DNA from: Escherichia coli
GTDB taxonomy: Bacteria > Pseudomonadota > Gammaproteobacteria > Enterobacterales > Enterobacteriaceae
Assembly (NCBI RefSeq): GCF_003018115.1
Contig: NZ_CP027457.1
Length of the DNA stretch: 64,000 nucleotides
Reading direction: 5' to 3' (one strand)
The position numbers and the translations under genes are program-made. Shown here one piece after another: positions 1 through 1,808 of the stretch (positions are counted from its first letter, which is position 1; the number at the start of each line of letters is the position of its first letter). A model generated the notes under the pieces. That model was not told where the DNA came from. It worked only from the letters and a program-made list of their open reading frames with translations, and made no database searches.

Positions 1-36
1 GCCAACCGGTTGCTGCGGTTTAAACCGAAGGAATAA
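1..36 (+). CDS. copA: Copper-exporting P-type ATPase CopA, C-terminal 11 codons plus stop (5' part outside window)
   Basis: Frame 1 from position 1 translates ANRLLRFKPKE then TAA at 34-36, matching the recalled CopA C-terminus; synteny next to ybaQ supports it. Confidence 0.75.
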   Translation, partial: ANRLLRFKPKE

Positions 37-452: not shown

Positions 453-794
453 TTACGCGACCTTTTTTGCACGCTCTTCACGGCGTGCCAAATATTCAGC
501 CACTGTTTCAATCCGTCCCAATTCTTCCTGGGTGCGCATGTTGTTTTCAACTTCCCAAAGATCAACTGCCGCCTGGAGGTTTAGCCAAAAATCGACTGTG
601 GTATCAAAAACTTTCGCCAGACGGAATGCCATTTCAGTGGTGAGTTTACGATTATTATTGATCAGTGTACTGACGCTATTACGATGAACATGCAGCAACT
701 CTACTAACTCATTGATTTTCAAAGCGATCTGTTCCGGATATTCATAGAGAAGAATATCTCCGGGTGTCGTCGGTTTTCTTGTTGCCTGTTTCAT
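453..794 (-). CDS. ybaQ: XRE/HigA-like helix-turn-helix transcriptional regulator YbaQ (113 aa)
   Basis: ORF 453..848 (-); start set to the internal Met (MKQATRKPTTPGD...) matching the known 113-aa protein; ATG at 794. Confidence 0.9.
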   Translation of the reverse strand: MKQATRKPTTPGDILLYEYPEQIALKINELVELLHVHRNSVSTLINNNRKLTTEMAFRLAKVFDTTVDFWLNLQAAVDLWEVENNMRTQEELGRIETVAEYLARREERAKKVA

Positions 795-931
795 AGTTTT
801 TAACTGTTGCTTCCCTGTGAATAGCGATACAAGAACATACTGAATCATACAAACACATTAAACAAGTCCCCAACTCCATTTGCGCCATCCCTCCCCGCGC
901 GCTAGCATGATATTTCACAAAGGGAGGTCGT

Positions 932-1726
932 ATGGATCTGTTGTACCGGGTAAAAACGCTTTGGGCCGCGCTGCGCGGTAATCATTACACCTGGCCTGCC
1001 ATCGATATCACCCTCCCCGGCAATCGCCATTTTCATCTGATTGGCAGTATTCATATGGGTAGCCACGATATGGCTCCCCTGCCCACCCGTTTGCTCAAAA
1101 AGCTCAAAAACGCCGATGCGCTGATCGTCGAGGCGGATGTTTCCACCAGCGATACGCCTTTTGCTAATTTGCCTACTTGCGAGGCGCTGGAAGAGCGCAT
1201 TAGCGAGGAGCAACTCCAAAATCTGCAGCACATTAGCCAGGAGATGGGCATTTCTCCGTCGCTCTTTTCTACTCAACCGCTGTGGCAAATCGCGATGGTT
1301 CTTCAGGCGACGCAGGCACAAAAACTGGGGCTGCGGGCAGAATACGGTATCGATTACCAGCTATTGCAGGCGGCGAAGCAACAACATAAACCCGTGATTG
1401 AACTGGAAGGGGCTGAAAACCAGATTGCCATGTTGCTCCAGCTCCCTGACAAAGGACTGGCGCTGCTGGACGATACGCTGACCCACTGGCATACCAACGC
1501 ACGGTTGCTGCAACAAATGATGAGCTGGTGGCTGAATGCGCCGCCGCAAAATAATGAAATAACGCTGCCCAATACGTTCAGTCAGTCGCTGTACGATGTG
1601 CTGATGCATCAGCGAAATCTCGCCTGGCGGGATAAATTACGCGCCATGCCGCCGGGGCGATATGTGGTCGCGGTCGGTGCACTACACCTGTATGGAGAAG
1701 GGAATTTACCGCAAATGTTGCGCTAA
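932..1726 (+). CDS. ybaP: TraB/GumN family protein YbaP (264 aa)
   Basis: ORF-track entry 932..1726, 264 aa; recognised N-terminus MDLLYRVKTLWAALRG; synteny. Confidence 0.93.
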   Translation: MDLLYRVKTLWAALRGNHYTWPAIDITLPGNRHFHLIGSIHMGSHDMAPLPTRLLKKLKNADALIVEADVSTSDTPFANLPTCEALEERISEEQLQNLQHISQEMGISPSLFSTQPLWQIAMVLQATQAQKLGLRAEYGIDYQLLQAAKQQHKPVIELEGAENQIAMLLQLPDKGLALLDDTLTHWHTNARLLQQMMSWWLNAPPQNNEITLPNTFSQSLYDVLMHQRNLAWRDKLRAMPPGRYVVAVGALHLYGEGNLPQMLR

Positions 1727-1808
1727 AAAAATGGCCAATATCGCTATTGGCCCGTCAAAGAGGAATTTCATTTTTTTATTATTATGCCGTCACTTTAAGC
1801 GACGGTGT
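1725..1808 (-). ncRNA. chiX: ChiX (MicM/SroB) small regulatory RNA
   Basis: Reverse complement of 1725-1808 reads acaccgtcgcttaaagtgacggcataataataaaaaaatgaaattcctctttgacgggccaatagcgatattggccattttttt, matching the recalled ChiX sequence including its terminator hairpin and U-tail; it lies in the ybaP-ybaK spacer as in K-12. Confidence 0.85.

Follow-up and report, generated by a model that had tools for sequence, protein, structure and literature searches.

ybaQ of Escherichia coli, very probably the surviving antitoxin gene of a chromosomal higBA module between copA and ybaP

Introduction

The antitoxins of GraTA from Pseudomonas putida and of HigBA from P. aeruginosa (PA4674) and Proteus vulgaris are, according to the titles of their structure entries, dimeric helix-turn-helix (HTH) repressors of their own operon, and all of these systems have been studied as intact toxin-antitoxin pairs. 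An example of a chromosomal orphan or anti-addiction antitoxin is provided by the ccd of Erwinia, which acts against the ccd of the F plasmid. Chromosomal antitoxins of this kind have been discussed in general terms (PMC10790755, PMC7354431).

The orphan state of ybaQ in E. coli has already been published. YbaQ was described by RASTA-Bacteria (2007, PMC2374986) as a solitary antitoxin, the first reported from this species, and its cognate toxin gene, higB-1, was described in phylogroups B2 and F in 2020 (Rousset et al., bioRxiv 10.1101/2020.05.25.114553). In the latter study, ybaQ was essential by CRISPRi in 5 of 18 strains. In particular, the strains that require ybaQ are those of B2 and F with higB-1 upstream, the exception being CFT073, in which higB-1 is truncated; wherever higB-1 is absent or truncated, ybaQ is non-essential. 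Moreover, knockdown of ybaQ derepressed higB-1 in strain S88, most phylogroups were found to be without higB-1, and phylogroup D has lost both genes. The C-terminus of YbaQ is a known degron for ClpXP/ClpAP and is employed as a tag, and YbaQ builds up in cells with a clpX null mutation (PMC2907309, PMC8652233). The present analysis adds the anatomy of the replacement that separates toxin-less from paired loci, an operator consensus, population frequencies, a degenerate allele and a link to phage D6.

The ybaQ locus

The window, that is, the whole stretch of 64,000 nucleotides that was analysed, is a segment of E. coli chromosome with best matches (99.8%) to O169:H41 strains. The open reading frame of ybaQ, its coordinates and both of its flanks, a REP array on one side and divergent ybaP on the other, are as the initial annotation had given them. 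The following features are referred to below; "paired" denotes loci with higB-1 next to ybaQ and "solo" those with ybaQ only.

1-36, plus strand: 3' end of copA (protein ending in LLRFKPKE, then the stop codon), convergent with ybaQ
93-431, no strand assigned: REP/BIME array between the stop codons of copA and ybaQ, 3.4 copies of a 101-bp unit at 98% identity
453-794, minus strand: ybaQ, ATG at 794, TAA at 453-455, 113 amino acids; in RefSeq, "HigA family addiction module antitoxin" of E. coli
795-931: intergenic region between ybaQ and ybaP, 137 bp
795-800, minus strand: six bases 5' of the ybaQ ATG (AAAACT on the gene strand), the end of the sequence common to the paired allele on the ybaQ side
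801-870, no strand assigned: solo-specific segment, 70 nt in place of about 403 nt of the paired allele
871-931, no strand assigned: ybaP-proximal part of the intergenic region, common to solo and paired alleles
932-1726, plus strand: ybaP, TraB/GumN family, divergent from ybaQ; the neighbour on the higB side in paired strains

Each unit of the REP/BIME array is matched on both strands by naRNA4 (Rfam RF02564). The array is lacking from the paired-type (higB+) locus L001, where a short GC-rich hairpin is all that is found between copA and ybaQ. Beyond ybaP, the window continues with ChiX/sroB, ybaK and ushA. The sroB/ChiX small RNA (Rfam RF00368, 82 bits; 1725-1808, minus strand) overlaps the final two bases of ybaP on the opposite strand and corresponds to the annotated chiX of K-12. 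A longer open reading frame of 131 amino acids (453-848) was considered as the true gene and rejected because a stop codon breaks its N-terminal extension in the orthologous solo locus L005.

YbaQ is a HigA-type protein

The affiliation of YbaQ, which the initial annotation had described as HigA-like from its size and HTH architecture, is borne out by both sequence and structure. The protein encoded in the window scores 89.5 bits and that of the common allele 105.3 bits against NCBIfam TIGR02607, "HigA family addiction module antitoxin", a curated equivalog-level model with a cutoff of 47.7 bits. The match of the window protein to Pfam HTH_3 (PF01381) is, at 25.9 bits, barely over the cutoff of 23; the common allele reaches 43.6 bits. 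The crystal structure of K-12 YbaQ is available as PDB 2EBY, which is followed, among PDB sequence matches, by VapI/HigA of Coxiella (3TRB) and GraA of P. putida (6F8S, 6F8H); further matches are HigA of P. aeruginosa (7CSV, 6JPI), of CFT073 (2ICP) and of Proteus vulgaris (4MCX).

An AlphaFold (AF2) model of YbaQ (pLDDT 88) matches 2EBY. A Foldseek search with this model ranked 2EBY first, followed by 39 chains belonging without exception to HigA, GraA or VapI, with target-normalised TM scores of 0.70-0.91, in agreement with the ranking by PDB sequence comparison. The first generic Cro/C1 controller appeared only after the HigA-type chains, with a query-normalised TM score of 0.46. The fold has an XRE helix-turn-helix core, to which a helix is added at the N-terminus and further helices at the C-terminus, unlike minimal Cro/C1 proteins. 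Because of the family model, the neighbours of 2EBY and the gap in the Foldseek ranking, YbaQ is a HigA-type protein and not a generic Cro/C1 regulator. The C-terminal degron for ClpXP (RAKKVA) is intact in the window protein, and turnover by ClpXP/ClpAP fits a labile antitoxin.

The window holds no toxin gene

The view that neither flank of ybaQ carries a HigB/RelE-like open reading frame was likewise upheld. A profile search of eight small open reading frames within about 500 bp of ybaQ returned no Pfam match at E<=10, and tblastn with six HigB proteins against the whole 64 kb gave a best E of 0.11, with no match in 795-931. A HigB profile run against the six frames of positions 1-2000 reached at most 0.3 bits. 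After these searches, a higB remnant in or near 795-931 was rejected. A complete type II higBA module would have an adjacent PF05015 toxin gene in the same operon, and none lies next to ybaQ in the window.

Paired, solo and absent states in E. coli

An intact pair is found at the orthologous locus of other E. coli strains. In the paired strain MS1679 (locus L001), a gene for 100 amino acids lies between ybaQ and ybaP, 35 nt 5' of ybaQ and on the same strand, and its product matches PF05015 (HigB-like toxin) with 111.6 bits. Complete E. coli genomes (5426) were searched with ybaQ and the start of ybaP, ybaQ being scored as present at a cover of at least 80%. The states of the locus were distributed as follows.

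Paired: 1266 of 5426 genomes (23%), with higB-1 always present once and always on the chromosome
ybaQ present, paired or solo: 4828 of 5426 genomes
Solo: about 3560 genomes (66%), by subtraction
ybaQ absent: about 600 genomes (11%)

These counts and loci agree with the findings of Rousset et al. They support the conclusion that ybaQ encodes the antitoxin of a former pair and that most E. coli lineages, that of the window among them, no longer have its toxin gene, higB-1. The initial annotation had offered two alternatives, an orphan antitoxin-derived regulator or the remnant of a lost pair; both amount to the same thing and are supported by the evidence.

Several stages of decay can be recognised in the sequences: the intact pair, a pair with frameshifted higB (ATCC 25922), solo ybaQ, damaged solo ybaQ and loci without ybaQ. 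In Escherichia sp. E1V33, the solo gene is frameshifted, and indels after about codon 93 wreck the C-terminus. At locus L002, ybaQ has been deleted internally from a solo-type allele; about seven last codons with the stop codon and the solo-specific upstream DNA are kept. In some E. coli without the gene, exemplified by Nord122 (L003, 1133-1560), the gap between copA and ybaP is occupied by an unrelated filler of 428 bp without ybaQ, and the context of the copA stop codon differs.

The solo state is a replacement

The solo allele is collinear with the paired one across ybaQ and the six bases that precede its start codon, and once more from window position 871 in the direction of ybaP. In the interval, about 403 nt of paired-allele sequence, comprising the higB promoter/operator, higB itself (303 nt) and the 35-nt spacer with the Shine-Dalgarno sequence of ybaQ, are replaced by the 70-nt segment. 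Thus, the solo state is a replacement rather than a clean deletion, and no fragment of higB is left. The spacer of the paired allele holds a good Shine-Dalgarno sequence, GAGAAAGGTAAAACTATG, which is lost in the solo allele (ACAGTTAAAAACTATG).

By eye, the 70-nt segment resembles the promoter/spacer of the paired allele (ACTTG..TGTG..ATGATT), which would make it a diverged form of that DNA; local alignment led to the rejection of this idea. The score observed for the whole segment was reached by 857 of 1000 shuffles, and those of its two collinear halves by 169 and 879 of 2000 shuffles, respectively. As the filler has no detectable homology, the loss of higB cannot be read from a deletion scar, and its direction rests on parsimony. 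The same 137-bp solo intergenic region is present in the GTDB representative of E. coli, in Escherichia sp. MOD1-EC7003 and in Escherichia sp. E1V33, and therefore the solo form arose once. If the two genomes labelled "Escherichia sp." lie outside E. coli, the polymorphism would be old or borne by recombination.

The replacement also removed the regulatory DNA. A conserved promoter/operator consisting of ATGCACTTGCGCACAGTGCAT, then nAGTGCGC, then TATnAT lies 5' of every higB compared, including that of the paired E. coli allele; no copy with three or fewer mismatches was found in the 64-kb window. An autoregulated promoter with the antitoxin's palindromic operator is thus missing from the window, which retains one half-site-like arm: CATTTGCGC at 877-885 is a lone half-site here but, in the paired allele, forms an inverted repeat together with the operator (GCGCAAGTG). 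The promoter of ybaQ must now be supplied by the 70-nt segment. A scan of the solo intergenic region for promoter consensus sequences found none; TTGGGG-18-TATGAT, picked out by eye, is a weak candidate.

Relatives in other genera and on mobile elements

A scan of 100,044 species representatives yielded ten loci, three of which are the copA-ybaP locus, all solo. The other seven are located in Trabulsiella, two Enterobacter, Escherichia sp. ESNIH1, E. albertii, Sodalis and, as a second copy, E1V33, and their antitoxins are 62-83% identical to the common YbaQ. Each of these seven loci has a higB homologue directly upstream (61-79% identical to HigB-1), which is frameshifted at L010 and interrupted near the 5' end of its frame at L011. 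Homologues of YbaQ are therefore linked to toxin genes at all seven loci outside copA-ybaP, as they are on phage D6-type plasmids (see below), and the idea that they might never be so linked does not hold. Toxin and antitoxin have co-diverged as a unit; therefore, the pair appears to be ancestral and the solo gene its remnant. This polarity, with the solo state derived, follows from parsimony and would be the most economical reading of the sequences.

Two of these loci showed further peculiarities. Escherichia sp. E1V33 combines its decayed solo ybaQ at copA-ybaP (L008, 3001-3335) with an intact higBA elsewhere (L009), a copy resembling those of E. albertii and phage D6. In E. albertii (L013, approx. 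2510-2626), tandem AATGACC repeats (ATGACCAATGACCAATGACC...) directly precede the start of higB, which makes its start codon ambiguous and possibly slippage-variable.

Among mobile elements, phage D6-type plasmid prophages carry the addiction module most closely related to higB-1/ybaQ. A HigB with 80-81% identity to HigB-1 is encoded on 92 plasmids from E. coli, Salmonella and Citrobacter. On the one plasmid examined (NZ_CP076307.1; L023, 2501-3212), higBA lies between phage tail and baseplate genes, and the module is 99.7% identical to that of Escherichia phage D6 (MF356679, 67514-68225). Among the 5426 E. coli genomes, the D6-type module occurs in 76 (1.4%), on plasmids of approx. 90 kb and never on the chromosome.

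Selection on solo alleles and the allele of the window

The common protein, WP_000806442.1, is encoded by all five sampled paired alleles and also by the solo alleles of K-12 and O157, which differ from paired ybaQ by four and two synonymous changes, respectively. Other solo alleles carry W70R, which falls in the invariant FWLNLQ motif, Q89L, D24A/A43T or E54D/A75V/V98A. Eight solo alleles have 11 nonsynonymous and 15 synonymous variable sites (omega roughly 0.2), whereas the five paired alleles have none and four, a sample too small for a significant contrast with the solo set. From these numbers, constraint on the solo gene looks relaxed but not gone. The pattern of substitutions points to a solo ybaQ that is not decaying freely and may retain some function.

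The window allele has gone further. Its product differs from WP_000806442.1 by L20P, P22Q, L23I, D24A, A31V and A43T (pN/pS 0.58), and the allele is rare: only five records have at least 99% identity, and as a whole it was seen only in O169:H41-like records. In an alignment of ten sequences, the window is alone in its changes at L20, P22, L23 and A31, and it shares a change at A43 with its close relative L004 and no other sequence; position D24 varies. The substitutions map, in the predicted model, to the end of helix 1 (11-23), helix 2 (27-34) and recognition helix 3 (38-46), and together they lower the score by 16 bits for TIGR02607 and by 18 bits for HTH_3. Four of the nonsynonymous changes fall within 13 nt in codons 20-24 (724-739), where CTGGAACCGCTCGAT of the common allele reads CCGGAACAGATCGCT in the window; conserved LEPLD thereby becomes PEQIA, and a GATC site is created. 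These four substitutions within five codons probably represent one multi-nucleotide event. As five of the six residues replaced are invariant in the other orthologues compared, the window allele is probably weakened in function.

Proposed history and alternative explanations

Taken as a whole, the evidence makes it very probable that ybaQ survives here as the antitoxin gene of a type II higBA module (higB-1/ybaQ), whose chromosomal site in Escherichia lies between copA and ybaP. When the module is intact, a single promoter 5' of higB would drive both genes, with an overlapping operator of the form ATGCACTTGCGCACAGTGCAT-nAGTGCGC-TATnAT, present at the paired loci compared here. YbaQ would repress this promoter, as the published derepression of higB-1 indicates, and neutralise HigB-1, an mRNase of RelE fold, in keeping with the published finding that ybaQ is essential only together with higB-1; ClpXP would turn YbaQ over via the C-terminal degron known from the literature. 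In an ancestor of most E. coli lineages, one event then probably swapped the promoter/operator, higB and the spacer with the ribosome-binding site for 70 nt of unrelated DNA; the junctions and the loss of the operator are visible in the alleles compared, and the direction of the event is what parsimony suggests. The remnant in the window would be a small HigA-type DNA-binding protein, still expressed, with neither its toxin target nor its operator. We infer that solo ybaQ is now largely dispensable, with constraint relaxed but present. In the O169:H41-like lineage, it appears to have drifted further, the six substitutions observed probably weakening YbaQ.

It is somewhat unlikely that toxin-less YbaQ has been recruited to chromosomal genes via operator-like sites elsewhere and is maintained for that purpose. 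ChIP-exo sites and a MEME motif have been obtained for YbaQ in K-12, together with RNA-seq of a ybaQ deletion (Gao et al. 2018, PMC6237786), and Rousset et al. (10.1101/2020.05.25.114553), who place the ChIP-exo motif in the higB-1 promoter, suggest "other functions". The omega of about 0.2 among solo alleles would agree with such a role, as would the fact that YbaQ can be detected and builds up when clpX is inactivated by a null mutation. However, the texts on YbaQ that were consulted, PMC6237786 among them, name no target gene or phenotype, and the 64-kb window has no operator-like site within the mismatch limit given above; moreover, strains with a truncated higB-1 or none do not require the gene, and roughly 11% of complete genomes have no ybaQ. 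Another proposal, which we regard as unlikely, is that orphan YbaQ is kept to neutralise HigB of mobile higBA modules, above all those of the D6 type, and thus blunts post-segregational killing, an idea treated in general terms in PMC10790755. The residual purifying selection on solo alleles is compatible with it, as is the occurrence of close HigB relatives on the 92 plasmids, among them the near-identical copy of the D6 module between tail and baseplate genes, of D6-type modules on the approx. 90-kb plasmids of 76 E. coli genomes, and of a D6 HigA that shares 76% identity and the same operator with YbaQ. Nevertheless, the two proteins differ strongly over their C-terminal 18 residues, D6-type plasmids are rare, ybaQ has repeatedly been lost or damaged, and the window allele is changed at conserved positions. 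The specific case that orphan YbaQ, as found in two-thirds of E. coli, acts in trans as immunity against D6-type HigBA would seem quite unlikely. Were anti-addiction nonetheless its role, alleles like that of the window (LEPLD to PEQIA, A31V, A43T) would mean that the role has been lost or that an arms race over specificity is under way. The D6 plasmid-prophage link makes an anti-addiction role of orphan YbaQ conceivable and directly testable.

Extremely unlikely is the remaining possibility, that YbaQ is a generic Cro/C1 regulator that is merely HigA-like and was never paired at this locus, with higB a later insertion in B2 and F. Its Pfam match is solely to the generic HTH_3 family, the 70-nt solo segment has no similarity to higB DNA, and two genomes that carry no label beyond "Escherichia sp." also have solo loci, all of which would suit this reading. 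It is already contradicted by the paired homologues, the shared operator and the Foldseek neighbours: YbaQ passes the equivalog model by a wide margin, its structural neighbours are exclusively HigA-type, and each homologue elsewhere comes with a HigB that has diverged in step with it and with the same operator. Moreover, an insertion would have had to place higB, promoter and Shine-Dalgarno sequence precisely before an unrelated resident gene. The loss of higB-1 from an ancestral module remains the preferred reading. On this reading, the ybaQ locus is a clean and well-populated case of chromosomal toxin-antitoxin decay, with all stages, from intact pair through frameshifted toxin, orphan antitoxin and damaged orphan to empty site, within one species, and ybaQ is a core-genome gene that is essential in some strains only.

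Comparison with known systems

In GraTA of P. putida and HigBA of P. aeruginosa and Proteus vulgaris (compared through 6F8S, 6F8H, 7CSV, 6JPI and 4MCT), the HigA fold is shared with YbaQ at target-normalised TM scores of 0.75-0.91 and 28-34% identity. These Pseudomonas and Proteus antitoxins are thus distant from YbaQ in sequence, and the C-terminal helical tail of YbaQ is longer and ends in the ClpXP degron. Like anti-addiction antitoxins of the Erwinia ccd type, YbaQ is an antitoxin homologue encoded on the chromosome that lacks, or does not depend on, a toxin of its own, and it has relatives on plasmids; by this analogy, cross-protection by YbaQ would be a lead rather than a result.

The HigBA module of phage D6 is closer. 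It has the same toxin-first order and operator consensus as higB-1/ybaQ, and identity amounts to 76% between its HigA and YbaQ and to 80% between its HigB and HigB-1. It differs in residing on a mobile plasmid prophage and in its 70-nt spacer between higB and higA, whereas the window is toxin-less, and the C-terminal 18 residues of the two antitoxins diverge strongly.

The closest described system is the higB-1/ybaQ module of phylogroups B2 and F (e.g., S88 and MS1679/L001), which occupies the orthologous locus between copA and ybaP. At the DNA level, the ybaQ genes share 97-99% identity, and K-12, O157 and the paired strains all encode one and the same YbaQ protein. Compared with this module, the window is without higB, the promoter/operator and the Shine-Dalgarno spacer, carries the 70-nt filler in their place, and encodes a YbaQ with six substitutions.
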